Source of the DNA: Candidatus Bathyarchaeia archaeon
GTDB taxonomy: Archaea > Thermoproteota > Bathyarchaeia > Bathyarchaeales > Bathycorpusculaceae
Assembly: GCA_038883655.1 (NCBI GenBank)
Contig: JAVZLQ010000003.1
Location: 128,001 to 192,000, forward strand
Reading direction: 5' to 3'
DNA length: 64,000 bases
Positions 45,371 to 61,854 of this stretch are shown piece after piece (positions within the stretch are counted from its first letter, which is position 1; each line of letters starts with the position of its first letter). Made by a program: the position numbers and the translations under genes. The notes below the pieces were generated by a model. That model was not told the DNA's origin. It searched no databases and was given only the letters and a program-made list of their open reading frames with translations.

Positions 45371-45417
45371 CGCGTTATACGCCCTGTCAATTTGAATTGC
45401 GAAAATTCTGAATTGAC
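45366..45417. terminator. Palindrome and hairpin between convergent genes
   Basis: Perfect TATAACGCGTTATA (45366-79), then GTCAATT...AATTGAC stem (45386-45417). Confidence 0.35.
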
Positions 45418-45449
45418 GGCCCTCAATTTTTCACGATTAAACATCCCGT

Positions 45450-45731
45450 TTATTGATGTTTGCTTTTAATGTTGAATGGTTTACCTTCGGATAAAATTTT
45501 TTCCGGAATTTTCTCTTTCCATTTTTTCAGGAAAGGTAAATCCTCGCTTTCTTTTCGAAGCTCGTCGGGTAGCATTTCTGGAATCTCATCGCGTATGGGA
45601 TACCACCTCAAACATTTTGGGCAAACGATTAAGCCCTCAACGATTTCGTCCTTTTCCTCGAACACGTAGAGCTCCAACGGATAATGTTTATCAATTGGAC
45701 ACGCAAGGATTTCCATAAGCTTTCGCTTCAT
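45450..45731 (-). CDS. trm112: Trm112 family methyltransferase activator
   Basis: LMEILACP.DK..PL, EG...CPKC.R.YPI.D.IP.MLP. Confidence 0.9.
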   Translation of the reverse strand: MKRKLMEILACPIDKHYPLELYVFEEKDEIVEGLIVCPKCLRWYPIRDEIPEMLPDELRKESEDLPFLKKWKEKIPEKILSEGKPFNIKSKHQ

Positions 45732-45793
45732 ATTACATCAATTCCAAGTATTTTGCTTTAAACTATAAAACATTTTATGTCCGCCCAAAATCT

Positions 45794-46645
45794 TTAGGGT
45801 TTAACTTTAATGTCTAAAACAACTTGATACCAGTTTGGACCTGTATTCCTAACAACTCGTCCAAATGGTATTTCAAAATTAACGCCTAAGTCGGTTAGTC
45901 TATTAGCAACTTTTATCTTGACTTTCGCAGCGGCATCCTCGTTTTTGCTCGCGTGTTCAAAATCGTAATAGTGTATCCATCCGCCATTTTCCTTAAGCGC
46001 TAATAGAGCGCAGGACAGATATTCAAAGGCTCTTTCCGGGAGCGGCATTAAAACGCGATCGGCAACGTGGCAAAGTTTTTCTTTAATTATTTCTTTTGCG
46101 TCGCCAAGCATAGGCACAACTTTACCGTAAACTCTGTTCAGCCTTATATTTTCCTTCATGTAATCAACTGCCACAGGGTTGATGTCGATTGAATACGCTT
46201 TTGAAACATCGGAGTGCTTTGCTATGATTATTGAGAAGCAGCCAACACCAGCAAACATGTTTACGACTGTTTCTCCACCTTTCACTTGTCTTGCAATGCG
46301 CATTCTTTCATAAAATAGCCTTGGAGAAAAGTAACACCTTTGAACGTCAACGTGGAAGACGCATCCAGACTCTTTATGAAAAGTGCTTGTCTTATGCTCA
46401 CCAGCAATATGTTCTAAGGCGCGAAGCCTAAATTCTCCGGTAACTGGTCCCGTTTGCGCCAGAACTGTTCGCACATTTTTATGTATGCCCATCAGCGTTT
46501 CCGCGATAACTTCGCCGTGCTTTTTTGATTGTGATGTTAGGCGTATTATTGCTATGTCTCCGACAATGTCGTAGGAGCTATACAAATGTGCAAGTTCGCT
46601 TGGAGAAAGCACAGTTGCCAACGCGTTTTTCAAGCTTTTCCTCAA
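45794..46645 (-). CDS. Trm5/Met-10 family tRNA methyltransferase, short Taw21/aTrm5a-like form
   Basis: YDIVGDIA, G.FR, YFSPR...ER, MFAGVG.F, DINP, DRVLMPLP, HYY; TTG start inferred. Confidence 0.8.
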   Translation of the reverse strand: MRKSLKNALATVLSPSELAHLYSSYDIVGDIAIIRLTSQSKKHGEVIAETLMGIHKNVRTVLAQTGPVTGEFRLRALEHIAGEHKTSTFHKESGCVFHVDVQRCYFSPRLFYERMRIARQVKGGETVVNMFAGVGCFSIIIAKHSDVSKAYSIDINPVAVDYMKENIRLNRVYGKVVPMLGDAKEIIKEKLCHVADRVLMPLPERAFEYLSCALLALKENGGWIHYYDFEHASKNEDAAAKVKIKVANRLTDLGVNFEIPFGRVVRNTGPNWYQVVLDIKVKP

Positions 46646-46725
46646 GGCTATTTCATCCTTCACTAAATTAGTTGCGTTTGGAAACATTTAAAAGCAAAAC
46701 GCCTTCTTTTGATAAGGGGATAATC

Positions 46726-46887
46726 ATGGCTAAAACTGGAATTGTATACGAGTGTGTAAGGTGCGGAGCAAAAGTTTCACCAGAAGATTTGGAGCTCCGC
46801 GGTGGGGAAATAAAGTGCACGACTTGCGGCTACAGAATTTTAAGGAAGATAAAGCCTCCTGTTGTCAAGCGGATCAAAGCAAAATAA
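46726..46887 (+). CDS. rpo12: RNA polymerase subunit Rpo12 (P)
   Basis: YECVRCG...IKC..CGYRIL.K.KPP.VKR.KA. Confidence 0.92.
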   Translation: MAKTGIVYECVRCGAKVSPEDLELRGGEIKCTTCGYRILRKIKPPVVKRIKAK

Positions 46888-46917
46888 AAAGAGAGAGTGA
46901 ACCGTTAGTAGGATGTT

Positions 46918-47205
46918 CTAAAAGATTTCTTTTTCGCCTATTTTGCGAAGCGCCCTGCCGCGAAGCTTTATTGCGGGTCCAACAACTTCCTCTGGCGGTT
47001 TTTCAACAGTTTTCCTTTTCACAGTTTCACCGCATATTCCCCTAGGAAGTAGGCGCCTCTTAACGCAAATGGCGTATCTGCAGTTTGCAACGTCGCATAC
47101 CTCTTCAGTCCATCTACACCAAACACCATCACGCCTGTAGACTGCAGCATTCTGGGTGCACTTGAAGGCTTGACATGTTGGAGAACAAGCTTTTCCTTGC
47201 GCCAA
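46918..47205 (-). CDS. Small Cys-rich (8 Cys) hypothetical protein
   Basis: C-x3-C-x4-C ... CRW...C....C.YA.C...L...G.C; start uncertain. Confidence 0.7.
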   Translation of the reverse strand: MAQGKACSPTCQAFKCTQNAAVYRRDGVWCRWTEEVCDVANCRYAICVKRRLLPRGICGETVKRKTVEKPPEEVVGPAIKLRGRALRKIGEKEIF

Positions 47206-47304
47206 CACACGCACAACCCTTGTTATTTTCAAAACTTTCGCATCAACAGCTCTCTAAAATATTCTTACAAAGAGAGAATATTAAACCTTTTTCTATACAA
47301 CTCC

Positions 47305-49419
47305 TTATTTCCGCTCCTCTTTAGGCCCTTGACTCTTGAAACTCTTTCTCCTATAAACTTCCAAGGCTATTATGAATAGGGCTGTTATGGCAACTATTAT
47401 TGCAGTAGCCAAGTTACCCGTATCAACAATAAAGCCTGCTAGAACAACATATCTATCAATTTTGATGGTGAGCACTGTGGGAGCCACTACATTAGCTATT
47501 TTGGTAATACACGGCTCCAATTGGCCGGGCATGTATACGGCTATATGGATTTCTCCTCCAATAGCATTTTGGAATGTAACTGTGCCGCCTGAGTCCGTTT
47601 GTTTAGAATCTTGTAGTGAATCATGGCGTAATATTACGTTGGCGCCAGATATTGGTTGACCAAAGTAATCAACAACTTTAACTGTTATGTTTAAGCCGTA
47701 AAGCTGACATTTCACTGTTACATTAAATTCAACATCGCCAGAAGTTAAATCAAATACCGTTTCATTTAAGAGTATATTGCTAAAGAAAATTTTGACAGAG
47801 TATCTTCCGAAAGTGCAGTTTAAGGTGGCATTTCCGTTAACAGCCTCTCCTTCAGTAAACAATCCAACGGTTAGCTCTTGGGCTCTCAATGTTGCCGATG
47901 GAATTGGCTGGTTATTTGCATCTAAAACTTGAATGTTAAGCCTTCTGGTTGGATAAAGAACTGTCACGTTAACGTATTCGGCAACTGGTAAATCTGGAAT
48001 AGTGTTGTTGCCAATGTTAAAAACCAGCCCATAAAGTGAGGCATTAACCACGCAAGTCACGTTGGTAAGCACAGTTGGAAAAACAATCAGGCCATTAAGG
48101 TCTGTTCGATTGGATTCGGTGGCAGTTTTGTTTTCTGGCATGCCGTAGTTTGTAGTGTAATTATAAGTGAGTGTTATGTTCACGTTTGGAATGCGCACGC
48201 CACGCTCATTTTCAACAATTATGTTTAGACTTGTTATGTTACAAGTGAAGGAAAAGTTTAAGGTGGCTTCTCTCGTAACGCTGAACAGAAAACCATCACC
48301 AACCTTCACATCCTTAAAGTAAGTTTCAGCTGTATAATCACCTATCTCAAGCATGAAGTTGGTGTATCCGCCTGCCCCACTGCGGTTTGTATGGTAAATA
48401 TTTGCAGAGACATCGTGCAACTTCACTAAGACATCTGGAACACTTTTTCCTGCAAGGTTAAGCGTATAAACAGTTGTGCTAAAGCCTGGAACATTAAATA
48501 TCTGGGTGTCTGTGAAGTTCTTGGCTGTTGGCACTGGCGTTATGGTCACATTGTAGGTGTGGGTTGCGTTGCTTACAAGCATATTATTTGGAACAAGCCA
48601 ATCATAGTTTACTGTTCCATCTGTAACATTGTAGGGTATGGTGTCTATAGCGGTATTTCCAAACTTTATTTCAATTGTAACGTTCTCGTTAACTGGATAG
48701 TTAACTGCTTTGATGTTGACAATGTCACCTCGATGATAGACACTTGCGTTTGTAATGCCAACGAAAAACTGGTCTCCTGTAAAGGTTTCATTGAAAAAAA
48801 TCTTATAGTATCCGGTGAAGTTTGTGTTTGCGCCTTCCACGAAATCATCTGGGTATGCGACGTTAAAGAAGCAAGTTCCAGAAACATCAGTTGTAATGTT
48901 GATGTCATTTCGCAAGGTGTAGTTCAAGTCTTCGCGTGGCGTTTGAACCTTAATTTTCGGATATGTGTAATTAGCCAAGCCTCCAGTGATATTAACTGTG
49001 ATTATTAAGCTTGCGCCTTCTTGCAGTTGTGCGGGAGGCTCTGGAACTTGAGGCTTAAACGACTGGAACGTTAAAATGGTAAAGCTTCCGGTGTCGTTTT
49101 CTCCCATCGCATCAATTAGCGTAATGTTGTGGGCGCCTTGCGGCGCATGTGGTATTATAAAGCTTACAGTTACGTTGTTTTCTGTGGCTTCTCCGCTTAA
49201 AATTTCATTTTCATCAAATAATATTCTATAAGTGCCAGTAGTGCTCACATTAGCCGTTAACGTGACATTTGTTCCAACATACCCGGAAGTGGGATTTATA
49301 GAGACTATTTTTGTTTCAGCCTTTGCCGAAGGTAGAAGTGAAAATGTAAACATTATTGATGACAGTAGAAGTAACAAGAATAAGATTGATTTAATTTTGT
49401 TTGGCGCAGTTGTTTTCAA
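47305..49419 (-). CDS. Membrane-anchored surface glycoprotein with tandem Ig/carboxypeptidase-regulatory-like domains
   Basis: Signal peptide ending AKA; repeats such as V.D..GQPI.GANV; many sequons; C-terminal TM + RRK. Start uncertain (ORF extends to 49599). Confidence 0.8.
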   Translation of the reverse strand: MKTTAPNKIKSILFLLLLLSSIMFTFSLLPSAKAETKIVSINPTSGYVGTNVTLTANVSTTGTYRILFDENEILSGEATENNVTVSFIIPHAPQGAHNITLIDAMGENDTGSFTILTFQSFKPQVPEPPAQLQEGASLIITVNITGGLANYTYPKIKVQTPREDLNYTLRNDINITTDVSGTCFFNVAYPDDFVEGANTNFTGYYKIFFNETFTGDQFFVGITNASVYHRGDIVNIKAVNYPVNENVTIEIKFGNTAIDTIPYNVTDGTVNYDWLVPNNMLVSNATHTYNVTITPVPTAKNFTDTQIFNVPGFSTTVYTLNLAGKSVPDVLVKLHDVSANIYHTNRSGAGGYTNFMLEIGDYTAETYFKDVKVGDGFLFSVTREATLNFSFTCNITSLNIIVENERGVRIPNVNITLTYNYTTNYGMPENKTATESNRTDLNGLIVFPTVLTNVTCVVNASLYGLVFNIGNNTIPDLPVAEYVNVTVLYPTRRLNIQVLDANNQPIPSATLRAQELTVGLFTEGEAVNGNATLNCTFGRYSVKIFFSNILLNETVFDLTSGDVEFNVTVKCQLYGLNITVKVVDYFGQPISGANVILRHDSLQDSKQTDSGGTVTFQNAIGGEIHIAVYMPGQLEPCITKIANVVAPTVLTIKIDRYVVLAGFIVDTGNLATAIIVAITALFIIALEVYRRKSFKSQGPKEERK

Positions 49420-49606
49420 AGCATGTTCCCTCTGAAACGCATGTGAGATGTGAACACTTCTAATACTAGGGAGCATTTTAACTTTACTTTCAATAACATA
49501 GCTTAGAGCTATCTTATACATAACTAGAGCCGTGAAAAATGTCAAGAAATTTGGGCGTAAAATAGAAAAGTAAATTTGTACGCGCGGTAAATTTTGCACA
49601 TTTGCG

Positions 49607-50797
49607 GTGATTGGAGTGATTGAGGAAATTCTCTCCTTGGCTGAGCAGCATGAAGAATGGCGCGGAAAGCAGTGCCTAAATCTTATTCCTTCAGAAAACG
49701 TGATGAGTCCATCCGTCCGAAAACTTCTCTCTTCAGAATTCGGAAACCGCTACACAGCAAGAGACCGCTTTTACATGGGAACACGCTTTCTAGATGAAGT
49801 TGAAGCGTGCGGAGAAAAACTTGCAAAAGATGTTTTTAAGTCCGAAGTAGCTGATTTGCGCCCACTTTCTGGACACATTGCAGACCTAATATTCATAGCT
49901 AACTTCACAAAGCCAAAAGACACGCTCATGTGCGTATCTCCAGACGACGGCGGATATCCTGGAATGTGGAAAGAAGGATTAGCTGAACTATTAAAATTAA
50001 ACGCGATACCCTTCCCCTTTTCCAAACGTGACATGAGCATTAAAGTAGAAGAAGCAAAGGAAACAATTAAACGTGTCAAGCCAAAACTTGTTGTTTTCGG
50101 CGCAAGCATAATCGTTTTCCCACAGCCAGTTAAAGAGCTGGCAGAAACTGCCAAGGAAAACGGAGCAGTTGTCGGATTTGATGGTTCGCATGTCTTGGGA
50201 TTGATTGCTGGAGGACAATTCCAAGACCCATTAAGGGAGGGGGCACATGCACTTTTCGGGTCAACTCACAAAACATTCTTTGGACCACAAGGTGGAATTA
50301 TCTTGGCGGATAGGAAGCATGGAGAAATTCTCAAGGAGAAAATTTATCCAGCTTTTGTGGATAATGCGCATTGGAACCGTATTGCAGCGTTAACCCTAGC
50401 TTTGGCTGAAATGAAAAAGTTCGGCAAAGCCTACGCAAGACAAGTTATACGAAATGCGCAAGAGTTGGCAAGGGCGCTGCATGATTTTGGGCTTCCGGTT
50501 GCATGTGAACATTTAGGCTTTACGAAGTCGCATCAGGTTCTGCTGAATTATGGCGATTATGAAGGGGGTCGAGCAAAGGCAGAGAAGCTTCAGCATGCAA
50601 ACATAATTGTTGACTGCGTCATCAGGATTGGCACATGCGAAGTTACGAGACGCGGGATGAAAGAGGCTGAAATGCATAGAATAGCCGAACTAATTAAGAG
50701 AGTGCTTATTGATGAAGAAAAACCTGAAAATGTTAAGAGGGATGTCGCCAAACTCTGCGCTGAATTCCAAAGACTGGAATATTGCTTTGACGAGTGA
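49607..50797 (+). CDS. glyA: Serine hydroxymethyltransferase
   Basis: NLIPSEN, R.Y.G, DGSHVLGL, STHKTFFGPQGG, R.GT.E.TR.G. Confidence 0.9.
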   Translation: MIGVIEEILSLAEQHEEWRGKQCLNLIPSENVMSPSVRKLLSSEFGNRYTARDRFYMGTRFLDEVEACGEKLAKDVFKSEVADLRPLSGHIADLIFIANFTKPKDTLMCVSPDDGGYPGMWKEGLAELLKLNAIPFPFSKRDMSIKVEEAKETIKRVKPKLVVFGASIIVFPQPVKELAETAKENGAVVGFDGSHVLGLIAGGQFQDPLREGAHALFGSTHKTFFGPQGGIILADRKHGEILKEKIYPAFVDNAHWNRIAALTLALAEMKKFGKAYARQVIRNAQELARALHDFGLPVACEHLGFTKSHQVLLNYGDYEGGRAKAEKLQHANIIVDCVIRIGTCEVTRRGMKEAEMHRIAELIKRVLIDEEKPENVKRDVAKLCAEFQRLEYCFDE

Positions 50798-50848
50798 AAC
50801 TGTTTTATTAGGTGCGTTTTTATGCTATTATCATATGAGTGAGAAACT

Positions 50849-51805
50849 TTGGAAAACGCTGCTCCACAGGCACTCATACAGGCGCTGAAAAGGCAAAAGT
50901 ACCACATAATAGGCAAGCATTCAGCCGTGAAAAGATGCAGATGGTTTTACGAAACCCTGATCAATGATAGACCATGCTATAAACAGAAGTTTTACGGCAT
51001 AAAAACACACCAGTGTATACAAATGACCCCAGCGCTCTTCTATTGCACACAACAATGCCTATTCTGCTGGAGGGCACAAACTGGCGACTTAAAGATTAAC
51101 TGGGACGAAACGCGACTGCCATATTGGGACTCACCCGAATTTATAGTGGAAGAAAGCATCAAAGCTCAGCTTAAAATTCTAAGCGGATACAAAGGCAACC
51201 CAAAAGCGGACAAACAAAAGTTTATGGAGGCTTCCACACCCAGACACGCCGCTATAAGTTTAACTGGTGAACCCACGCTGTATGGGCATATAAGCGACTT
51301 GATTAAGGCATTTCACAAAAGAGGATTTACAACATTTCTTGTATCTAATGGAACATTGCCCCAAGTTTTAGCAAATCTTGAAGAGGAACCCACACAGCTT
51401 TACATATCTGTCTGTGCCCCAGATGAAAAAACATTCAAGAAGGTTTGCCGTCCACAAATTCCAAATGCTTGGGAAAAGCTTAACGAGACTTTGGAACGCT
51501 TGCCCAGCTTTAAGTGTCCAACTGTTATCAGAATAACTTCAGTGAAGGATTTGAACATGAAAAACATTGAAGGTTACGCAAGGCTGATTGAAAAGGCAAG
51601 TCCAACTTATGTTGAGCCAAAAGCTTACATGCACGTTGGATTCTCACGGCTGCGTTTAGGTTTTGAAAACATGCCAAGCCACAGGGAAATACGCGATTTT
51701 GCATACAAGATTGCAGAGAAAACAGGTTATAATGTTCTGGATGAGGCGCCGGAAAGCAGAGTTGTACTGTTAGGTAAAGTACAGCGCACCATTAGATTCG
51801 GATAG
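50849..51805 (+). CDS. taw1: 4-demethylwyosine synthase (radical SAM)
   Basis: HSAVK.C.W, CYK..FYGI..H.C.Q.TP, C...CLFCWR, SLTGEPT. Confidence 0.94.
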   Translation: MENAAPQALIQALKRQKYHIIGKHSAVKRCRWFYETLINDRPCYKQKFYGIKTHQCIQMTPALFYCTQQCLFCWRAQTGDLKINWDETRLPYWDSPEFIVEESIKAQLKILSGYKGNPKADKQKFMEASTPRHAAISLTGEPTLYGHISDLIKAFHKRGFTTFLVSNGTLPQVLANLEEEPTQLYISVCAPDEKTFKKVCRPQIPNAWEKLNETLERLPSFKCPTVIRITSVKDLNMKNIEGYARLIEKASPTYVEPKAYMHVGFSRLRLGFENMPSHREIRDFAYKIAEKTGYNVLDEAPESRVVLLGKVQRTIRFG

Positions 51806-51943
51806 TTGTTGATGCTACTCGCAACTAATCCATTTTTAAGTTAACTTTCATATAAACAGCTTTTTCATCAATTGGTGAGAATAAAACTTATATAACACGC
51901 TTTTTATTACGCTTTAAACTTAAAATTAAATCGAGGTGGAACG

Positions 51944-52144
51944 ATGGTTAGTGAAGGAAAGGGCAGACTGTTCAGAAGAAAGGATGGAAAATACTTAATT
52001 TACATACCGAAAGACTTGGCGGAGGACAGCATGTTTCCATTTAAAGGCGCAGACTCTGTGTTCGTGAAAGTCAGCTTCAAGGTTGGCGGAGAAGAAAAAC
52101 TCATCATAGAACGATGGAAAGAACCACCACCACAAAAGCAATAG
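51944..52144 (+). CDS. Small AbrB/MazE-like (swapped-hairpin) hypothetical protein
   Basis: GKYLIYIPKDLA.D..FPF..D.V.V; GAGGTG RBS. Confidence 0.65.
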   Translation: MVSEGKGRLFRRKDGKYLIYIPKDLAEDSMFPFKGADSVFVKVSFKVGGEEKLIIERWKEPPPQKQ

Positions 52145-52249
52145 CCTATTTTCCATCCTTTGAAGTTTCGCTATTCCAATAACCCTATTTTTAATCACGA
52201 AAATTATAAGCACGGAAATGATTCTAGATATAGAAAAGGCGAAGAGCAG

Positions 52250-52885
52250 ATGAGCTCGTTAAAAGTTATCTTAGAAGAAATACGCAAAGAACTGAAGGAG
52301 AAGGAGAAAATTCGAGAAAACATCCAAAACGACATGCGGAAGGCAACAAGCCTTTCAAAACAGGCAATACTCTTGATACATCAAAAAAGGCTAAAGGACG
52401 CGGAGAAACTCATTAAAAAAGCAAAAGAAATCATTCTGGAGCTTAACAACGCTTCCGCCGCCCACCCAGAAATCATTTATAGTGGACTGTATGACGCGGC
52501 GCTTCAAGAGTATTCTGAAGCAAACATATTCCTAAAACTAATAGAGGAAGAGCGCTTTGTAACGCCAAAGGAGATTAGCGTGCCATCCGTGGATTATGTT
52601 CTTGGATTAGCGGACGTTATAGGAGAGTATAGGCGTTTGGCACTCGATGCATTGCGAGAAGGTGATGTGCGAAAAAGTGAAAAATACCTAAAGATAATGG
52701 ACGAAATTTACATCGAACTTATGGGCATGAACGAAGCGTACATGCTTGTTCCAGGGTTACGAAGAAAATGCGACACTGCAAGAAAAATTATTGAGACTAC
52801 GCGAGGCGACGTAACCCAAGAGATTAGGAGAAGCACGCTTGAAAAGTATCTTAAGGGTTTAGAGCACCATTTGAGGAAAAATTAA
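52250..52885 (+). CDS. Translin/TRAX (C3PO) family RNase
   Basis: REN...R....SK..I..IH, QEYSEA, YVLGLADVIGE.RR, LRRK.D..R. Confidence 0.85.
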   Translation: MSSLKVILEEIRKELKEKEKIRENIQNDMRKATSLSKQAILLIHQKRLKDAEKLIKKAKEIILELNNASAAHPEIIYSGLYDAALQEYSEANIFLKLIEEERFVTPKEISVPSVDYVLGLADVIGEYRRLALDALREGDVRKSEKYLKIMDEIYIELMGMNEAYMLVPGLRRKCDTARKIIETTRGDVTQEIRRSTLEKYLKGLEHHLRKN

Positions 52886-52889
52886 AATT

Positions 52890-53564
52890 ATGAAAGGGAT
52901 TCCTAGAAATTTTTCTGTTGAAAAGGCTCATGAAACGCAGGTTTGTCTATCAGGAAGGATAATTTTTGAGGATAAATTGCCGAGGAAAATATGTTATGTC
53001 GCTGGAGTTGACGTGGCGTATGCGAAGAATTTATCGGTAGGCGCCGTGGCAGTGTTGGATTACGACACGCTTAGGCTTTTAGAGTGTAAAACCGCCGTTT
53101 GCGAGACGCGCTTTCCATACGTTCCAACACTCTTGTCTTTTAGAGAAGTTCCGCCAGCAATATTAAGCATAAAAAAGTTGCGAACAAAGCCAGACGTGTT
53201 CCTTGTTGATGGGCACGGTTTTGCCCATCCCTACTACTGTGGTTTCGCAAGTCACTTGGGGCTAGTTTTGGGAAAGCCAACGATAGGCGTGGCAAAAAAT
53301 CGGCTATTCGGAGAGGAAAAACGTGTTTATGGCGAACCATTCGCCTTTCTGAAACATAATGGTAAAGTTATTGGCGCCGCGGTTGTAACAAAGAGTGGGT
53401 GTAAACCCATTTATGTTAGCGTAGGACACATGGTTTCTTTGGAAACCGCGATTAAAATTGTTCAACACTGCGCTGTGAGTGATAGGATTCCAGAGCCAAT
53501 CTTGAAGGCGCACGAAGCGGCAACCACGGAAAAACGAAAAATCAATATACGTAGCGGTTCTTAA
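52890..53564 (+). CDS. nfi: Endonuclease V
   Basis: GVDVAY, PYVP..LSFRE, VDGHG..HP, GVAK, SVGH, PEP...AH. Confidence 0.93.
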   Translation: MKGIPRNFSVEKAHETQVCLSGRIIFEDKLPRKICYVAGVDVAYAKNLSVGAVAVLDYDTLRLLECKTAVCETRFPYVPTLLSFREVPPAILSIKKLRTKPDVFLVDGHGFAHPYYCGFASHLGLVLGKPTIGVAKNRLFGEEKRVYGEPFAFLKHNGKVIGAAVVTKSGCKPIYVSVGHMVSLETAIKIVQHCAVSDRIPEPILKAHEAATTEKRKINIRSGS

Positions 53565-53573
53565 AAGTGATAA

Positions 53574-54305
53574 GTGAGAAAGTTGCTTGATCCGAAAATT
53601 AAGGCGGTAGCCAATAAAATTCGCGACGAAAAACTGCGAAAAAAGATTATGGAGTTCTTGGAAAATCCAACATTCGAAGTTGGCGGGAAAACCTATACGG
53701 GCATACCTCTCGATGTTTCGCCTGCTGGTTTGTCGCATCACCACTGTTATGCTGGGGGCTACGTCGAGCATGTTGTTTCAACAGCAAAAATAGCGCTCAC
53801 AATATGCGACTGTGTGAAAAAAGTATATCATGGAAAAGTAAACCGCGACTTTGTTTTGGCTGGAGTTCTGCTTCATGACATTTTCAAACCATTAACATAT
53901 GCGGTAAAGGAGAATGGAAGCTACGCTACAACAAGCTTAGCAGATTATATGGATCACTTGTCAATGGTGATAGCCGAACTTGTCAGAAGAAAGTTTCCAA
54001 TAGAGGTAATCCACACAGTTTCGGCTCACCACGGCGAGTATGGACCAATCAGACCGCACACAATAGAAGCGTTAATCTGCCATCTAGCAGATTTAATTGA
54101 CTCACGTTTAAACGGAGAAGTGTTAAACGCTGCAGCTTACTTAGCGAGAAAAGCCGTCGGCGAAGAACTAGCGGGACTGACAGCTAAAGAGGCTTTTGAA
54201 ATAGTTCATTCAAAGGCGACCGAAGGTTGGGATGGCGTAGCAAAAACCGTAGAAAAAATAAAGCGTAAGAGAAAAGTCGCAAAACTTAATAGCACACAGC
54301 ATTGA
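53574..54305 (+). CDS. YhaM-like HD-domain phosphohydrolase without OB domain
   Basis: PA...HH.Y.GG..EH, LLHDI.K, DH, HHG, EA..CHLAD..D. Confidence 0.82.
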   Translation: MRKLLDPKIKAVANKIRDEKLRKKIMEFLENPTFEVGGKTYTGIPLDVSPAGLSHHHCYAGGYVEHVVSTAKIALTICDCVKKVYHGKVNRDFVLAGVLLHDIFKPLTYAVKENGSYATTSLADYMDHLSMVIAELVRRKFPIEVIHTVSAHHGEYGPIRPHTIEALICHLADLIDSRLNGEVLNAAAYLARKAVGEELAGLTAKEAFEIVHSKATEGWDGVAKTVEKIKRKRKVAKLNSTQH

Positions 54306-54324
54306 AAAGTGTGGAAAAGGAAGG

Positions 54325-54660
54325 GTGAATGAAATGGAAATATCGTTCGAGGAATTCCAAAAGTTGGATATGCGTGTTGGAAAAATTTTGGAGGCAAACC
54401 AAATTCCAGGCTCACGAAACTTGATTAGGATGACTGTTGACTTTGGAACAGAAAAGCGCCAAGCAGTTGCGGGTTTACTGCAATGGTACAAGCCCCAAGA
54501 CCTTGTCGGCAAAAAATGTGCTTTCATACTGAACCTTCAAAGAAGGAAGTTTATGGGCGTGGAGTCGCAGTGCATGATTTTGGCTGCAGAAGACGAGAAG
54601 GGCAATGTTGTGGTGCTTCAACCAGAGAAGGATATTGTGGAAGGAAGCAAAATCCATTAG
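54325..54660 (+). CDS. tRNA-binding OB-fold protein (Trbp111/CsaA/MetRS C-terminal-like)
   Basis: ISFEEFQKLD.RVG.I, VDFG...RQ..AG, NL..RK..GVESQ.MILA. Confidence 0.9.
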   Translation: MNEMEISFEEFQKLDMRVGKILEANQIPGSRNLIRMTVDFGTEKRQAVAGLLQWYKPQDLVGKKCAFILNLQRRKFMGVESQCMILAAEDEKGNVVVLQPEKDIVEGSKIH

Positions 54661-54751
54661 AATTAGACTTCGAATAAACTTCTAACTCAATAATTGTTAA
54701 ATACAACAGTACAGCAAAATAATGAGTCGTTTGCAAAAAGGATGGATGAAT

Positions 54752-57130
54752 ATGAAAGAGAAACTAAGCAAAAAGATTGTAGGCCTTTTGATTGCTGCAA
54801 CACTTTTAGTGACTTTTATGCCAAACATAGTATATGCATCAAGCGGGCTCACTCTAGAAAAGAATCAAGAATGGCTTACAGGAGACGATAGTTATTCATT
54901 GGCAAATGCTGCAGGAGACATCGACGAAGACGGAGTAACGGAAATCGTTACAGCGGGATACTTCTATAACTCCACAACTGGCATTTATTTGGGTGAAGTA
55001 AATGTGTGGAATTGGAATGGCACACATATAATAGAAGAGTGGAAGGAAATTGTCGACCCATCCTACACTTGGTCCACCGACACCCGCTTTTATGCTGTAG
55101 CGTTAGGAAACGTTGACAACGAAACAGGTGTAGAAATCGTAGCAGCCGGGTACGGAAAATTCCTAAACTTCATTGAACAAGGATTACTAGTTGTTTTAAT
55201 CTGGAATGGAACATCGATGGAAAGGAAGACTGGTTGGTACTGGCCTTTTGAGGCTAATGAAACAAAGTTTTTTGATGTGACAATAGGCGACGTGGACAGA
55301 GACAACACGACAGAGATAATTGCCGTGGGCTACAGGAACACCACGTCACTTTATGGAACAGGATTTCATGGAGCAATAACAATATGGAATATTACCGACG
55401 CAAAATTGACGCTTGAAACAAGCCAAGAGTGGCTCATTGGTGGAGGCACAGAAGGGCATTCGGTGGCGGTTGACGATGTAGACGAGGACGGAGATATTGA
55501 AATAATTGTTACAGGATACTTCTATGATGACATACTTGGGCATGATTGCGCGATGCTCAGAATATGTACTTGGAATGGTTCAATTTTTATTTGGGAGGCA
55601 AGCACCAAATGGTACACGTATTTAGAGACTTACTCGGTTGACGTCGCAATAGGAGATCTAGATTCTGATGGAAGGAAGGAAATTGTTACAATTGGAAGAC
55701 AATTTAACGGAGAAAACTACTATGCGCAACTAAGAATATGGTCGTGGGATGGAACTCTCCTAACATTGAAGTTGAGCGTGGAGGGCGGTCTGGTAGGACC
55801 TTTTACGAGTACATCAGGCAAAGCAGTAGCAATACATGATGTAGATAAGGATGGCAAAAAAGAGATAATTGCCGGCTTGGATGTGGCAATACTTTTCGGC
55901 TCCACGCCTATTATCACAATTTTCTCGTGGAACGGAAACACTTTGACCACAAAAGACGCAGCAAATTGGAGAGAAGCGTCAAACATCGAAGATGTCACTT
56001 GCGCCGATGTGGACGCTGATGGAAACATCGAAGTACTAACCGCTGGTTACAAATGGCAATTTATGGTTGTTACAGAAAAATCCGAATTAGCAATATGGAG
56101 TGTAAGTAAAGTTGCGAGTGCCCTAACCGTGAATGTAAGCCCGTCAAGCATTGTTATAGGCAGTCAAGTGACAATAAGTGGCAGATTAACAAACGAGGCG
56201 GGTGACACGCCAATACCAAACGCTGAAGTAACAATAGAATTTTCACGTGAACCCCTACCAGTTCTAGTAACGATAGGCAAAGTTATAACAAATGAAAATG
56301 GAGAATACACGTTCACTTGGATTCCACAAGCAGCTGGAAACTACATGATCCGCGTAAGCTGGAAAGGCGACTACGAACATGAGGCTGCAGCCGCAACAAC
56401 CCCATTGACCGTTGAAAAGGCTTCAAGTATGATAACCCTAACACTTTCAAGTTACACAGCAACAGTCGGGGACAGCATAAGCGTAAGTGGCACATTATAT
56501 CCAGCCAAACCAGCGGCAATAACCCTCAAATACACAAAGCCAGACAGCTCAATAAGCACAAAAACTGTTTACTCAAACCAGGCGGGAGTTTTCACAGACA
56601 CGTTCACAGCAGATCAAGCTGGACAATGGCAAATAACAGCAAGCTGGAGCGGAGACGACACCTACAAGGCGGCAGAAAGCGCACCAGCACCATTAACAGT
56701 GATAAAAATACAAAGCACACTGTCTATAACAGCCTCACAGTTAACGGTTAACTTAGGCGAAAACATAACAATAAACGGAGCATTAACGCCGGGACAAGCT
56801 GCAAACATAACCTTAACATACACCATGCCAAATGGCACAATCACCACAAAAACTGTACCATCAAACACTACTGGAGCCTTCATAGATACGATTAGGCTTG
56901 ATAAAGCGGGAACATGGCAAGTGAAGGCAAAATGGACAGGTGACGCCCAACATACTGCGGCTGAAAGCACACTAATAACGCTAACAGCCCAAGCCGTTGA
57001 TACTACAACGCCCATGTTCGCTTTAGGCGGTTTAGGACTTGGAATAATAGCACTAATTTTGGCGGCGATAGCGCTCCTCATGTCTTCCAGAAAACCAAAA
57101 GCGGCGCCACCAACGCAGCCCTCGCAATAA
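54752..57130 (+). CDS. Surface protein: signal peptide, 7 FG-GAP/VCBS-like repeats, 3 Ig-like domains, TM anchor
   Basis: Seven GD.D.DG..EI.-type motifs; three S.L...S.......G....SG modules; TM + RKPK tail. Confidence 0.85.
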   Translation: MKEKLSKKIVGLLIAATLLVTFMPNIVYASSGLTLEKNQEWLTGDDSYSLANAAGDIDEDGVTEIVTAGYFYNSTTGIYLGEVNVWNWNGTHIIEEWKEIVDPSYTWSTDTRFYAVALGNVDNETGVEIVAAGYGKFLNFIEQGLLVVLIWNGTSMERKTGWYWPFEANETKFFDVTIGDVDRDNTTEIIAVGYRNTTSLYGTGFHGAITIWNITDAKLTLETSQEWLIGGGTEGHSVAVDDVDEDGDIEIIVTGYFYDDILGHDCAMLRICTWNGSIFIWEASTKWYTYLETYSVDVAIGDLDSDGRKEIVTIGRQFNGENYYAQLRIWSWDGTLLTLKLSVEGGLVGPFTSTSGKAVAIHDVDKDGKKEIIAGLDVAILFGSTPIITIFSWNGNTLTTKDAANWREASNIEDVTCADVDADGNIEVLTAGYKWQFMVVTEKSELAIWSVSKVASALTVNVSPSSIVIGSQVTISGRLTNEAGDTPIPNAEVTIEFSREPLPVLVTIGKVITNENGEYTFTWIPQAAGNYMIRVSWKGDYEHEAAAATTPLTVEKASSMITLTLSSYTATVGDSISVSGTLYPAKPAAITLKYTKPDSSISTKTVYSNQAGVFTDTFTADQAGQWQITASWSGDDTYKAAESAPAPLTVIKIQSTLSITASQLTVNLGENITINGALTPGQAANITLTYTMPNGTITTKTVPSNTTGAFIDTIRLDKAGTWQVKAKWTGDAQHTAAESTLITLTAQAVDTTTPMFALGGLGLGIIALILAAIALLMSSRKPKAAPPTQPSQ

Positions 57131-57168
57131 TAACAAAAGCTGAAAATTCAACTTTTCCCTTTTTCTGT

Positions 57169-58428
57169 TTAACCTACAAGTTTAGTAATGGCATCCGCCT
57201 TTTTCCTATCTTCTGCCAGATACTCAATCATTTCAGCATCCAAATCAAGCCATTTTGTAAGCCCAGCAGCCATGTTAACATTATTCTTGAATATTATCTT
57301 GAGGTAGGGAATTATCTCCTTTGATGCCCTATTTGCGGATATGTGGCATTTCCGCTTAATCTTTTGCCCAATGCTTAGTTGCATCGCACGCTCAGCTTTG
57401 GACCTAGACAACATCTGTATGCGCGTTGGGAATTTGAATGGAATGAATCCACGAGTCTTCGTGTTTTGTCTAGCCATCGCGACACCAGCGGTCATGAAAT
57501 CGATAACATAACGTGTGAAACTCCAATCTTGTGTGGAGCGTATTCTCCCCCTATAAACGTCCGCCATGGAAAGCGCGTCCATAGCCCTTGCCAAATCATG
57601 AGGGTCGGTTAAGTGTGCTGGAACATTCTCATAAATCCATTCAAAAAGCATATCGATGTCAGCATCAGCCATGTCAACCGCTTGCTTTGCACCACTACAA
57701 GTGCGCGCATAAATTATCATCCTTAAAACGTTAAAAATAGTGTCTTGCCTATCCCTATAACCAAGCCAAGAAACATCATTATATGTCAGTCTCTTCTTAC
57801 CTTGAGCCAATGCTTGAAGGTCATTAACCGCCGAGCGAACATCACCTTCTGAACGCTGCGCAATAAACTTTAAAGCATCATCGTCAGCTTGTATTCCCTC
57901 GCGGATGCATATACGCTTCAAATGCTTCATGACTTCGCTTGCTGGAGGCTTCTTAAACTCTATTAGTAGGCAGTAGTTGCGGAGATTGGCAAACCTCGGG
58001 TCATAAGCGTTGTTTGCAATCAAAACTATTGGACATTGGGCAGTTTTAACAATGTCTGTTATGGCTTTAACTCCGCCCTTGTCGGCTGTTCCCGTGATCC
58101 CGTCAAGCTCATCTAAAAGTATAATTCTTTTGCCGCCGAAAAGCGAACCGTACTGCGAAGCTAAACCAGCAAAACGATTAATCGCCTCTTCAGTCCTATA
58201 GTCGCTTGCGTTTTTCTCAACAAGCTCCATCTTAAAATCAGCGGCAAGAGCCTCAACAGTAACGGTTTTTCCAACACCAGGAGGACCAAAAATGAAGACT
58301 GCACGCTTTTTGGGTGCACCTTTCTCCCATGATTTTATCCATTCAACAAACGCTTGAATAGCTTCTTTATTTCCAACGATTTCATCTAGGGATTTTGGCT
58401 TGTGCTTAACGGTCCAAGCAGCGTACAA
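57169..58428 (-). CDS. rfcL: Replication factor C large subunit
   Basis: W..KHKP, GPPGVGKT, E.NASD.R, LDE.DG, GD.R...NDLQ. Confidence 0.93.
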   Translation of the reverse strand: MYAAWTVKHKPKSLDEIVGNKEAIQAFVEWIKSWEKGAPKKRAVFIFGPPGVGKTVTVEALAADFKMELVEKNASDYRTEEAINRFAGLASQYGSLFGGKRIILLDELDGITGTADKGGVKAITDIVKTAQCPIVLIANNAYDPRFANLRNYCLLIEFKKPPASEVMKHLKRICIREGIQADDDALKFIAQRSEGDVRSAVNDLQALAQGKKRLTYNDVSWLGYRDRQDTIFNVLRMIIYARTCSGAKQAVDMADADIDMLFEWIYENVPAHLTDPHDLARAMDALSMADVYRGRIRSTQDWSFTRYVIDFMTAGVAMARQNTKTRGFIPFKFPTRIQMLSRSKAERAMQLSIGQKIKRKCHISANRASKEIIPYLKIIFKNNVNMAAGLTKWLDLDAEMIEYLAEDRKKADAITKLVG

Positions 58429-58439
58429 GCGCTTTGCAC

Positions 58440-59420
58440 CTAACTTGCTTTTTTAATTTCGTAACCTGCTTCCACAAGCCTCGCCAACAAAGCACTTAGC
58501 TGGACCTCTTCATCTGCGCCCTCAACAAGCCTATAATCTATATCACCAACGATGTCAGCCAACTTTATTTTCCAAGGTTCTGGAATATCTGCTCTAAAAA
58601 TTTCAGTGTGAATTTGCCTAATTATGTCGCTTCCAGCCACACCATACTTTTGAATCATGTCGCGCAGTTGTTTCCTAGCTTCTAAAAAGTCGCCATTAAT
58701 CGCTGTTTCTATCATTTTTTGCACGTCTGCTGGGTGAGCCCTACCAGCAATGGAATAAACAACCTTCGCGTCTACGGGCTTATTAAGCGAGGCGGCCGCT
58801 TGAAGCGTGTTGATAGCCTTTCGCAAATCTCCACCACAAACCTCAAAAATCGCGTCCAACCCATCCTTCAAGAGTTTGACGCCCTCATTTTCCGCTATAT
58901 GTTTAAGGTATTTGTCATGCTCTTCCCTTGGCAGAAATGTGAAACGGAATGGGGCGCAACGTGACTGTATTGGTTCGATTATTTTTCCGCTGTAGTTGGC
59001 GCATAAAATGAAACGGCATGTTTCAGTGTACCGCTCCATAGTTCGCCTCAAGGCTTGTTGTGCATCAGCAGTCATGTTGTCCGCTTCATCCAAAATCATA
59101 AGTTTAAATGGTATCTCGCCGATAGATCGCACACGAGCAAACGTTTTAACTGTTTCCCTAACAACGTCTATGCCCCTCTCGTCACTCGCGTTTAATTCCA
59201 TGATGTGTTCACGATAGGCTTCGCCATACAAGTCCCTAGCCAAACAAAGCGCAGCAGTCGTCTTTCCAGTACCAGGCGGTCCAGCGAAGATGCAGTGCGG
59301 CACATTTTTGGATTTAACGAAGCTTTTTAACCGCTCAACTATCTCCTTTTGATTAACCATCTCATCCAACGTTTTTGGTCTGTACTTCTCAGCCCACATT
59401 TCAAAACTCAAAGTTTCCAC
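58440..59420 (-). CDS. rfcS: Replication factor C small subunit
   Basis: WAEKYRP, GPPGTGKTT, ELNASDERG, LDEAD, IQSRC. Confidence 0.95.
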   Translation of the reverse strand: METLSFEMWAEKYRPKTLDEMVNQKEIVERLKSFVKSKNVPHCIFAGPPGTGKTTAALCLARDLYGEAYREHIMELNASDERGIDVVRETVKTFARVRSIGEIPFKLMILDEADNMTADAQQALRRTMERYTETCRFILCANYSGKIIEPIQSRCAPFRFTFLPREEHDKYLKHIAENEGVKLLKDGLDAIFEVCGGDLRKAINTLQAAASLNKPVDAKVVYSIAGRAHPADVQKMIETAINGDFLEARKQLRDMIQKYGVAGSDIIRQIHTEIFRADIPEPWKIKLADIVGDIDYRLVEGADEEVQLSALLARLVEAGYEIKKAS

Positions 59421-59474
59421 TCCTCTCCAAACATATTTGACGGAATTGTTAATAAATTTATCAAAAAGGCGCGG

Positions 59475-59836
59475 TTACGTGGATACCACGATTTTGTCGA
59501 CGATTAGCGAAGGACACACTATATTACCAAATGTTTTCGGGTCGCCTCCAACAGTAATAACATTATTCAAAGCTTCATATAAGTTTCCAGCAACAGTGCA
59601 TGGCTTAATCGGATAGGCAACTTTCCATTTTCTATTTTGAACGCATTGTCAGCGGTTACTGAAAAATCACCAGTTACAGCATTTGAGTGAAAAGCGCCAA
59701 TAAGTGAACCTTTTACCAACACGCCATCTTTCAGTTCGCCTATCAAGTCTTCTCCTTTTGCCTCGGCAAAATATGCACCCATTTTTAAAGCATATTGCAT
59801 CGCTTTATCCATTAAGTCTTCTATCTGCGAACCCAT
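59475..59836 (-). pseudogene. tldD/pmbA-family remnant with large internal deletion and frameshift
   Basis: N-terminal A...GA..AE fused to C-terminal HS.AVTGDFS....AFKIENGK; frameshift near 59622 continues VAYPIKPCTVAGNLYE...PSLIVD to TAA. Confidence 0.78.
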
Positions 59837-59913
59837 GGCGGTCAACTTAAGCACTAAATATTTTGTACATGGATTTAAAGCTTAATAAAAGTAAGGGTTT
59901 TCACTTTTTGAAT

Positions 59914-61854
59914 TTATTTTTCTTCCTTTTCAAGAAAGCCCGTCAAGAATATGGCGTATTCGCATGGATGCTCATTTTGAAGCAGAGATTTTATTATTTT
60001 TATTTTCCCTTTTTTGCCGTGACTAACCCTGGAAATAATGTATTCTAGTGTTTTCTTTCGAAGCCCGCATAGCCATGTTTTCTGGCTGGTTTTGACCAGT
60101 TTGTAGTAGGGACAGCTTTTATATTTTAGGGTAAAGCCGCCTTCAAAATATTCTATTTCAACCTCTATACCAAGTTCGCGGTACATATCAATGATTCTTT
60201 CACCAACATCTTTGATGGTCCACGGGTAGTCTTCTGGAAAAAGTGCATCCAACTGCTCTTTTTCAATGGCGAAAGCTTCTTCGATTGAGTTGCATGACAT
60301 GCCTTCAATGAGTACTTGCATGAGCTTCTTACGAGGTAATGGCTCCAGAACTGGTTTTTCTAAAAGCTTCAGTTTAAAGCTTAGTAGGTTCTGGAATGTT
60401 GCTGTTGAAACTTCGTAGCCTAATTCCTTAAACATGGATTCTATTAGGATGCGTTGGCTGTTCATTACGAGGGGGTCTATCCGCTTAAAAATGATGGTGA
60501 AATGCTCGTCGTCAACAAACCTTACTTCAGCGTCGGACTGCGTCACACTAATGCTTTTGATGATAAAGTTTTTGGAAAGTCTACCAATTTTTTCCTGATC
60601 TCCCCTGGCAAGCATGCGGATGGCGTTAGAGATGCGAATTCCTGTTGCGCGATATATTTCTTCAAATTTCTGTCTATCGCTTTCGTATACTTTTGCTGCG
60701 AAGGAGTTGAAGAGATCGCGGGGGATTGGAACAACGTCTAGGAATTGTTTTCCTATTATTTGAAAGAGGTTGAGTTCGGCTAGCTGGTCTAAAACACTTT
60801 GGTCTTCCGCACCCACATATTTTATTGTCATGTTCACGTTTGCATGTTCAATTGAATATTGTAAAAGTTTCCACCCACGTGTTGCCAAAATTATTGAAAA
60901 TACGGTTACGGCTAGGCGGGCTATCTGGACGGTTGTGACTTGAAAAACTAGTTCTAGCATGTTTTCTTCTTTTTCTGTTAAAACTTTGACTTGCCTAAAC
61001 CAGTTCATTTTTATAAAGGCTGAAAGGATAGCTTTCACGAAGTCTTTTGGCTCTCTTGGAAATTCGCTGATGCCAAGAACAGTTCTAGCATCCTCTATGA
61101 AGTTACCCAAGTCTGTTACTGGTTCTTCCAAATGTTTCTCAGCCCAGCTCATAAAGGCTGGTCCAACAAGCATCAGCGTGTTTTTAAATAACCCAGGAGT
61201 AACGTTTGCCAGTTCTTTTTCAATCTGCTGTTCTAGAAAATCGCCGAATTCTTTTCTCCTTAATGTGTAAATTTCGGGGCGAATCATCTTTATGACTATG
61301 TCCTCGCCCATGATTCGTAAGTCAAAATTTACGCCTATGCCCTCCAATATCGTAGCAACTTGAAAGGCAACCATTACGGGTAAACGTTTGAAGACCTTAG
61401 GTCTTAGCACTGCTATGCTGTCGATTTCACTGTATGATGGAATGTCAAAAAGGTTTGTAAGCCCTTTTATCTCTTCTATGACCAGTAGAAACTCTTTAAA
61501 GGTCGATGGCACTTTCCATGCAACGGAACTTTTAAGTATCTCAATTATGTTCTTTGCCTCTGCTTTTTGTTCCCTAATTAGGTCTTCAATTGTTTTGTTT
61601 CCTAGGGCAACTTCTAGGAGGCTGTCAAGGCTCTTCCTACTAATTGATGTTAAGTCAAGCGCCTCTCTCAGTTTAGTTTGCTCATTAATTTTTGCTTTTA
61701 TTGTGCAGTCTTCGCAAGAGCCAACTTTATCCACCCTAAGCAGAGTCTCTACAGCTTTCTCGAGAACGCGGCTTTTCGTGCCGTATGTTTTTGCTAGTTC
61801 TTCAAGCATCTCGTTTGTTTTTCTGGTTATTGTTGTGTGAAGATGCACGGACAT
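59914..61854 (-). CDS. Putative regulator: N-terminal ribbon-helix-helix, CxxC, four tandem V4R-like domains
   Basis: HLHTTI...NEMLEELA..YGTKS.VLE.AV (RHH); CEDC; last domain CPY...C...C (V4R-like). Confidence 0.65.
   Translation of the reverse strand: MSVHLHTTITRKTNEMLEELAKTYGTKSRVLEKAVETLLRVDKVGSCEDCTIKAKINEQTKLREALDLTSISRKSLDSLLEVALGNKTIEDLIREQKAEAKNIIEILKSSVAWKVPSTFKEFLLVIEEIKGLTNLFDIPSYSEIDSIAVLRPKVFKRLPVMVAFQVATILEGIGVNFDLRIMGEDIVIKMIRPEIYTLRRKEFGDFLEQQIEKELANVTPGLFKNTLMLVGPAFMSWAEKHLEEPVTDLGNFIEDARTVLGISEFPREPKDFVKAILSAFIKMNWFRQVKVLTEKEENMLELVFQVTTVQIARLAVTVFSIILATRGWKLLQYSIEHANVNMTIKYVGAEDQSVLDQLAELNLFQIIGKQFLDVVPIPRDLFNSFAAKVYESDRQKFEEIYRATGIRISNAIRMLARGDQEKIGRLSKNFIIKSISVTQSDAEVRFVDDEHFTIIFKRIDPLVMNSQRILIESMFKELGYEVSTATFQNLLSFKLKLLEKPVLEPLPRKKLMQVLIEGMSCNSIEEAFAIEKEQLDALFPEDYPWTIKDVGERIIDMYRELGIEVEIEYFEGGFTLKYKSCPYYKLVKTSQKTWLCGLRKKTLEYIISRVSHGKKGKIKIIKSLLQNEHPCEYAIFLTGFLEKEEK

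Follow-up and report, generated by a model that had tools for sequence, protein, structure and literature searches.

The closest described counterpart of the gene cluster reported here is an archaeal operon that contains SepRS. A common ancestral operon of SepRS and an archaeal TRAX homologue was proposed by Mukai et al. (mBio 2017; PMC5424206), and the same article describes modern Crenarchaeota as being without SepRS. According to a later account (Front Genet 2022; PMC8762117), SepRS in Euryarchaeota, TACK and Asgard archaea is most commonly associated with TRAX and endonuclease V (EndoV), and occasionally with TYW1/Taw1, riboflavin kinase or DUF169. In that account, the most complete operon is found in some Bathyarchaeota, and a gradual loss of its components is considered likely. 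The passages on the operon in these two articles name no HD or MetRS-domain neighbor and give no function for the TRAX–EndoV pair. Here we describe a relative of this operon at positions 51944-54660 of a 64,000-nt stretch of DNA (the window), which is part of contig C3 of a 1.42-Mb Bathyarchaeia genome that is 93% complete.

Five open reading frames (ORFs), all in the same (+) orientation, occupy this region. They encode a 66-aa protein, TRAX (Translin family), EndoV, a short HD protein and a stand-alone tRNA_bind protein. As in the published Taw1–TRAX–SepRS–EndoV operon, known from Bathyarchaeia and other TACK archaea, Taw1 lies upstream and TRAX and EndoV are co-oriented and adjacent; the gradual component loss proposed for that operon fits the present locus. 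Conversely, there is no SepRS here, and genes for the HD protein and a MetRS C-terminal domain follow EndoV. On balance, we favor the view that the locus is a lineage-specific, eroded variant of the published ancestral cluster, in which TRAX and EndoV would share a loose RNA/tRNA role. The original prediction, made from the sequence of this locus, knew of no description of the combination. However, the TRAX–EndoV–Taw1(–SepRS) cluster has been published (PMC5424206, PMC8762117), and its core is therefore already in print; new here are the HD insertion, the MetRS-beta neighbor and the failure to find SepRS. In the literature library that was searched, no paper treats YhaM together with endonuclease V or translin. 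The features of the locus are given below, with ORF domains assigned by Pfam and NCBIfam scans (all domain calls agree).

50849..51805, + strand: Taw1/TYW1, 4-demethylwyosine synthase, radical SAM (TIGR03972, 434.2 bits, cut-off 318; PF08608; PF04055)
51944..52144, + strand: 66-aa ORF, tentatively a SpoVT/AbrB swapped-hairpin protein (conserved in 11 relatives; weak fold matches)
52201..52211, + strand: TATA-like A/T-rich stretch aaaattataag, candidate promoter (by eye only; about 40 nt before the TRAX ATG)
52250..52885, + strand: archaeal TRAX/translin, predicted C3PO-type nuclease subunit, 211 aa (PF01997; frame open from TTG 52160)
52890..53564, + strand: endonuclease V (PF04493, 215 bits, full length)
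53574..54305, + strand: short YhaM-like HD metal-dependent phosphohydrolase, 243 aa, no OB domain (PF01966; NF010007 partial)
54325..54660, + strand: stand-alone tRNA_bind, detached MetRS C-terminal domain (PF01588, TIGR00399; probable start ATG 54334)

The ORF coordinates agree with the predicted arrangement of four co-oriented genes separated by 4, 9 and about 19 bp: the stop-to-start gaps of TRAX/EndoV, EndoV/HD and HD/tRNA_bind are 4, 9 and 19 nt. The real start of Translin is probably ATG 52250, since the N-terminus then equals that of AfTRAX in length, leaving a 105-bp spacer after the 66-aa ORF. For tRNA_bind, ATG 54334 is the probable start because relatives begin with MEISF; the HD–tRNA_bind gap would then be 28 nt. 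A promoter within the 105-bp spacer would probably drive a common transcript of TRAX, EndoV, HD and tRNA_bind. About 12% of one raw-read RNA run yielded no read on the locus, and two contig sets labeled as possible RNA but probably DNA yielded only short fragments; these data speak neither for nor against transcription. Neither a tRNA gene (45000-60000) nor an Rfam family (49000-58500) was found.

SepRS was not found in the window's genome. A tblastn search with a relative's SepRS gave, in this 93%-complete genome, only a match of 26% identity located elsewhere, which we take to be probably PheRS-alpha. The CysRS of the genome is located on contig C5. Since SepRS was not found, TRAX and EndoV abut, and the locus can be regarded as a SepRS-less remnant of the published cluster.

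The arrangement in relatives was followed in 40 Translin-centered loci of the class (±6 kb). In 17 loci, EndoV is within 300 bp of Translin and on the same strand; 3 loci have it on the opposite strand, 8 have it at a greater distance, and 12 are without it. The more distant EndoV genes are mostly separated from Translin by SepRS (8 loci) or CysRS (4 loci). The gene in the intervening position is often SepRS (PF01409 and PF18006), seen in 8 loci of the class and in 6 from elsewhere in the phylum, and CysRS occupies its place in 4 loci of one family. In these four (L076, L078, L080 and L082), CysRS (PF01406) is found downstream of TRAX, where other lineages have SepRS; it stands between TRAX and EndoV in L080 and L082, and no EndoV is present in the L076 and L078 loci. 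It appears that the direct Cys-tRNA route has here taken the place of the indirect one at the same site. HD was found in none of the 40 loci, for which the family genomes had been picked as HD-less.

Outside the class, Translin was found in 303 of 401 phylum genomes. Among the 29 top-scoring Translin loci of other classes (±1.5 kb), EndoV is alongside in 3 and a divergent Taw1 in 3. In a wider set of 39 phylum loci from many families (±4 kb), EndoV is near Translin in 17 (8 on the same strand, 3 on the opposite strand, 6 farther away), while 7 of these loci contain Taw1 and 6 contain SepRS. Taw1 is conserved as the upstream gene of the cluster; it stands no more than 700 bp from Translin in 23/40 class loci and 5/39 phylum loci. 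TRAX and EndoV stay close to each other even where segments are inverted, where CysRS stands in for SepRS and where SepRS has been lost. These surveys therefore identify Taw1–TRAX–(SepRS)–EndoV as the recurrent unit, rather than the four genes that had been proposed as one system. Conservation of the neighborhood, suggested earlier as a check, was borne out for TRAX and EndoV, which are linked far beyond this genome, and failed for the other two genes: HD follows EndoV in one order only, and tRNA_bind is adjacent in one family only.

TRAX is a C3PO-type, Mg-dependent endonuclease that acts on single-stranded nucleic acid; we know of no established physiological substrate or role for archaeal TRAX. 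The Translin protein of the window matches PF01997 with E 1.7e-13 and 51.5 bits (cut-off 25.9), and the family profile matches AfTRAX 3zc1 at E 1.9e-35 and NEQ131 5jr9 at E 1.7e-22. Residues E87, E90, D122 and E126 are invariant in an alignment of 16 sequences of relatives, and the protein has the QEYSEA and DVIGE motifs. We take the four residues to be the TRAX catalytic residues (ExxE ... DxxxE), and the aligned AfTRAX motifs agree. The described archaeal C3PO of AfTRAX (PDB 3zc0/3zc1) and N. equitans NEQ131 (5jr9) belongs to the same family and is of similar length, with the acidic residues conserved here. Judged from sequence alone, the protein is predicted to be a TRAX-type nuclease with intact acidic catalytic residues.

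EndoV nicks at inosine, and, to our knowledge, no RNA-side role of a prokaryotic EndoV has been established. The EndoV of the window covers profile positions 3-197 of 198 in PF04493 (E 1.1e-63, 215 bits). It matches E. coli EndoV 4xpu at E 8.5e-39, and the active-site motifs DV, SFRE, DGHG, GVAK and GH align. Its scores are below the NCBIfam cut-offs (NF008629, 210.2 vs 230; NF041102, 192.9 vs 300), and it is a divergent archaeal member that still belongs clearly to the Pfam family. Thus, the catalytic motifs predicted for TRAX, EndoV and the HD protein are all present, being either conserved among relatives or aligned to 4xpu.

The chemistry of EndoV bears on the gene that follows it. EndoV is reported to cut the second bond 3' of inosine, so that the lesion stays at the 3' end and a 3'-5' exonuclease is needed downstream (PMC4693234). 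According to the same source, EndoV, the 3'-exonuclease of Pol I and ligase suffice for repair in E. coli, and P. furiosus EndoV cleaves deoxyinosine-containing DNA and inosine-containing RNA alike. An EndoV–HD pair would fit the logic of this alternative excision repair, in which a nick at inosine is followed by a 3'-5' exonuclease. However, the substrate of the E. coli pathway is DNA, and no exonuclease gene dedicated to it lies beside nfi, whereas the context here is one of tRNA enzymes.

The HD protein (PF01966, E 7.4e-12) has its His/Asp metal ligands (HH, HD, HHG and D) invariant in 11 relatives. In a phmmer search of the PDB, its sole matches were YhaM/Cbf1 9h3f (E 1.1e-9) and 9o7t, at E ~1e-9 and in the HD part only. 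Ahead of the HD core, its AlphaFold2 model (pLDDT 86.4) shows no more than two short hairpins, and the sole Foldseek match at or below 0.001 was YhaM 9h3f_A (E 1.6e-6, TMt 0.60). The catalytic domain, with its extended H..HD..HH..D motif, is held in common with YhaM/Cbf1, and an intact YhaM-like HD center is predicted. However, YhaM consists of an N-terminal OB fold and an HD domain in about 315 aa, whereas the protein here has 243 aa and no OB domain. The YhaM model NF010007 covers it only at positions 146-281 of 314, with 46.2 bits against a cut-off of 460, and the Pfam scan gave no OB match. The predicted identity as a YhaM-type HD protein lacking its OB domain therefore agrees with these results.

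A separate, longer YhaM-like protein (310-322 aa) is also encoded by relatives within the order, and an OB (PF01336) plus HD architecture was shown for the 322-aa one. NF010007 spans nearly the full length of both long proteins that were inspected (154 and 67 bits). The two genes are located at L240:730-1662 (-) and L241:567-1535 (-), and the OB and HD domains were shown for L241; in the L240 protein, the YhaM model matches almost from end to end, but no OB Pfam match was obtained. Two of the relatives with such proteins are without the short HD family. The existence of a separate OB–HD paralogue in relatives indicates that the short HD protein is a family of its own and not a truncated gene. 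The 120 near-length homologues listed, of 1416, are all 232-252 aa long and carry PF01966 only. A search of proteins of 427-2000 aa at E <= 1e-5 gave no fused HD form, which counts as weak evidence.

Database names of near-identical proteins disagree (HD/HDIG, nucleotidyltransferase, 3'-5' exoribonuclease, MptB), and one of them implies a different function. If the protein were MptB, the 7,8-dihydroneopterin 2',3'-cyclic phosphate phosphodiesterase of methanopterin synthesis, it would be an unrelated metabolic neighbor. Some JGI names of proteins at least 75% identical, and automatic Atlas cluster names, do say MptB. However, the names of near-identical proteins are unstable (HDIG nucleotidyltransferase, 3'-5' exoribonuclease), and YhaM is the only significant structural relative. 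The Pfam and NCBIfam scans returned no MptB model for the protein, so that at the sequence level the assignment is a matter of automatic names. The substrate-making enzyme was not found (PF02649, MptA/FolE2, 0 matches in the 93%-complete genome), and beta-RFAP synthase (TIGR00144) reached only 23.8 bits against a cut-off of 113.5. We consider this assignment very improbable.

Another possibility raised by the YhaM likeness is DNA repair. In this case, EndoV would nick DNA 3' of deoxyinosine, the HD protein would remove the lesion-bearing end in the 3'-5' direction, and TRAX would act as a nuclease or binder of single-stranded DNA. The need of EndoV for a downstream 3' exonuclease and the sufficiency of the E. 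coli set described above are consistent with this idea, as is the likeness of the HD protein to YhaM in both sequence and predicted fold. B. subtilis YhaM is described as mainly a 3'-exonuclease on single-stranded DNA that cannot bind its substrate without the OB domain (PMC12107432). In addition, every short-HD family genome present in both samples also has EndoV. Conversely, the recurrent neighbors of TRAX and EndoV are tRNA enzymes rather than repair genes, the HD–EndoV link is limited to one order, and the OB domain that YhaM needs for DNA binding is missing. A DNA repair unit seems quite unlikely to us.

The distribution of the HD gene was examined in 40 HD-centered loci (about ±7 kb), selected among class-level relatives for the length of their flanking sequence. 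TRAX–EndoV–HD is contiguous in 12 of them, all from the order of the window, and in one further locus of the order HD is 4.8 kb from EndoV–TRAX. The remaining 27 loci, in which HD is apart from TRAX and EndoV, come from other families of the class: 26 have HD alone, and one has EndoV 2.3 kb away on the opposite strand. A tRNA_bind gene is found 3' of HD in only five of the 40 loci, all belonging to the window's own family. A second set, the best 80 of 403 HD relatives in public genomes, forms one clade (65-90% identity), with all locus names being those of Bathyarchaeia; in this set TRAX–EndoV–HD–tRNA_bind is found in 73/80 loci and HD–tRNA_bind in 80/80.

Outside the order, the class loci showed no recurrent neighbor of HD except a DUF1893 (PF08973) gene, which is upstream of HD in 7 loci of one family and in 1 locus of another. 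In that family (L023, L024, L026, L027, L031, L035 and L038), 6 of the 7 loci have the DUF1893/TM1506 gene (E 4.7e-27) 68-166 bp before HD and in the same orientation, and in the remaining one it is about 1.3 kb from HD. In L036, from the different family, the homologue is about 1.4 kb upstream of HD. The window's genome has a DUF1893 homologue on contig C4, unlinked to HD.

The identity of the last gene is illustrated by the study of MetRS. The tRNA_bind protein matches PF01588 (E 1.2e-27, 96.3 bits) and, at 126 bits, exceeds the 116.65 cut-off of TIGR00399 (metG_C_term). It is the sole tRNA_bind match in the genome, whose own MetRS ORF has 570 aa and is without this domain. An order-wide survey covered 51 genomes, 48 of which have a match. 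A stand-alone ORF of 108-150 aa (64-93% identity) is present in 22 of the 48, three of which also carry a fused copy (G124, G545 and G550). In the other 26, the match (44-56% identity) occurs only at the end of frames of 630-717 aa, two of which were confirmed as MetRS (PF09334, PF19303 and a C-terminal PF01588). Because the ORF is the only tRNA_bind in the genome, the 570-aa MetRS lacks the domain and the domain is fused in relatives, the ORF is identified as the detached C-terminal domain of MetRS (beta subunit). Within the order, MetRS is split in some families (an approximately 108-aa tRNA_bind and an approximately 570-aa MetRS are shown for the window's genome, G000) and fused in others; the sites concerned are window 54325-54660, G000 C2:92399-93577 and loci L244-L272. 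Where the stand-alone gene occurs in the order's other families, it is on contigs other than that of TRAX.

This arrangement resembles the described split MetRS (alpha and beta) and Trbp111/CsaA, given the PF01588 and TIGR00399 matches and a MetRS without the domain. However, the tRNA_bind gene here is behind EndoV and HD and not beside metG. Seven HD-less genomes of the family, picked because no HD orthologue was found in them, show the order Taw1–small ORF–TRAX–EndoV–tRNA_bind, with tRNA_bind directly after EndoV in 6 and 2.6 kb away in 1. In one family member (G086:C153:4544-5537, L257), tRNA_bind and Translin are co-oriented and about 160 bp apart; neither EndoV nor HD was found in this genome (95% complete), and its locus is a further erosion step of the cluster.

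It had originally been proposed that the four genes form a dedicated RNA/tRNA surveillance system, with the tRNA_bind protein supplying an OB domain to the HD protein in trans. The short gaps and common orientation, the adjacency of HD and tRNA_bind in all 80 closest relatives and the reported requirement of YhaM for an OB domain would be compatible with such a system. However, the 80 loci represent one clade with general synteny. In G118, G020, G178 and G106, HD adjoins EndoV, yet the only tRNA_bind domain is fused to MetRS; thus the HD protein does not depend on a free OB partner. Conversely, the HD-less family genomes keep tRNA_bind behind EndoV. The protein passes the MetRS-beta model cut-off in a genome whose MetRS is without the domain, no HD–tRNA_bind fusion was found among the 120 listed near-length homologues or the longer proteins, and the fused OB–HD YhaM-like paralogue is a separate family in the order. 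With HD following EndoV in a single order and tRNA_bind adjacent in a single family, neither the four-part unit nor the supply of an OB domain in trans holds up, and we regard the dedicated system as highly doubtful. The tRNA_bind protein is, on its sequence features, assigned to MetRS and not to the HD protein as an OB module.

Several observations weigh against the shared role that we favor for TRAX and EndoV. Translin and EndoV were counted in the same 401 phylum genomes (303/401 and 311/401), and their family patterns diverge, as listed here.

f33: Translin 53/56, EndoV 2/56
f41: Translin 0/17, EndoV 15/17
f46: Translin 1/24, EndoV 23/24
f37: Translin 4/17, EndoV 16/17
f1 (the window's own family): Translin 25/25, EndoV 17/25

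TRAX and EndoV are thus not obligate partners, and neither needs the other. No EndoV is found within 1.5 kb in 26 of the 29 top-scoring Translin loci of other classes. Adjacency after the loss of an intervening gene is the default outcome and requires no selection. Within the family, conservation says little because the synteny also spans unrelated genes, with SHMT upstream and RFC-L downstream shared by 51 of the 80 closest HD loci. Finally, since YhaM needs its OB domain to bind (PMC12107432), the OB-less HD protein may act on something else; given this and the reported preference of B. subtilis YhaM for single-stranded DNA, an RNA role of its OB-less relative cannot be assumed.

An alternative is that the genes are neighbors by descent only. 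In this case, they would be leftovers of an old translation-related gene string, with TRAX, EndoV, HD and MetRS-beta each working alone. The largely independent phyletic patterns, the single losses in relatives of SepRS, EndoV (8/25 family genomes) and HD, the unrelated SHMT and RFC-L within the family synteny, and the published reading of gradual component loss (PMC8762117) are all in line with it. However, EndoV is convergent or divergent beside Translin in 6 loci of two families, CysRS replaces SepRS in 4 loci, and Taw1 is divergent in 3. The proximity of TRAX and EndoV extends to Euryarchaeota and Asgard archaea according to the published accounts, and the recruited neighbors are repeatedly tRNA enzymes. 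Descent alone is an explanation to be kept in mind, but a less likely one.

The 66-aa ORF upstream of TRAX is preceded, at 5 nt, by the Shine–Dalgarno-like gaggtgg, and shows 62-86% identity across 11 relatives. An AbrB-like gene and taw1 had been predicted upstream. Taw1 is well supported (TIGR03972, 434 bits), and the conserved 66-aa ORF is indeed present, whereas its AbrB label is only weakly supported. No Pfam match was obtained even at E <= 5, nor any NCBIfam match. The AlphaFold2 model (pLDDT 69.8) has a beta-beta-alpha-beta-beta order, and its best Foldseek matches are MazE, VapB, AbrB and Sso7c4, at E 0.8-4.5 and none at or below 0.001. A 44%-identical paralogue is located at G000 C4:159255-159425 in the same genome.

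On the 5' side of Taw1 lies SHMT (window 49607-50797); a second SHMT paralogue, 44% identical to it, is located outside the window at G000 C3:242420-243667. The cluster is followed on its 3' side by an FG-GAP/Ig-like surface protein and then by the RFC large subunit gene, which is convergent to it. Two large predicted surface proteins flank the cluster on either side. One (47305-49599, -) has 764 aa and many N-x-S/T sites, and the other (54722-57130, +) has 802 aa, FG-GAP and Big_3_5 repeats and a hydrophobic C-terminal tail.

Returning to the eroded-variant reading, the following course of events may be proposed. From its distribution, the short YhaM-like HD gene would have been placed behind EndoV in the ancestor of the order, with later losses in several genera. 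In the family of the window, the tRNA-binding domain from the C-terminus of MetRS, already split off, would have landed downstream. TRAX and EndoV would most likely have a loose function in common, the handling of RNA (chiefly tRNA) that has been deaminated or damaged, since the pair is repeatedly kept beside Taw1, SepRS, CysRS and MetRS-beta. In this order, the HD protein may act as an optional trimmer of the inosine-bearing 3' end left by EndoV, as its YhaM likeness suggests. A more specific version of this role, which we offer only tentatively as one of the less probable outcomes, is a clearance route for RNA deaminated by heat or nitrosation, tRNA above all: EndoV would nick 3' of inosine, TRAX would degrade the single-stranded pieces set free, and in this order the OB-less HD protein would have been recruited as an exonuclease to chew back the 3' end with the inosine.

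The phylum-wide linkage of TRAX and EndoV beside tRNA enzymes, known since 2017, is among the few genomic clues to the role of either protein. The present locus removes a false lead, the supposed OB partner being the detached tRNA-binding domain of MetRS. Its additions are limited to one order (HD) and one family (tRNA_bind), and are useful rather than surprising to a specialist. The locus also contributes a candidate for a third activity, that of a YhaM-like 3' exonuclease, at the very point where EndoV chemistry needs one, and with TRAX, EndoV and HD it offers a compact set of three enzymes. If the clearance route were true, it would explain why TRAX and EndoV stay beside Taw1, SepRS/CysRS and MetRS-beta, and it would provide the first physiological role for archaeal TRAX.

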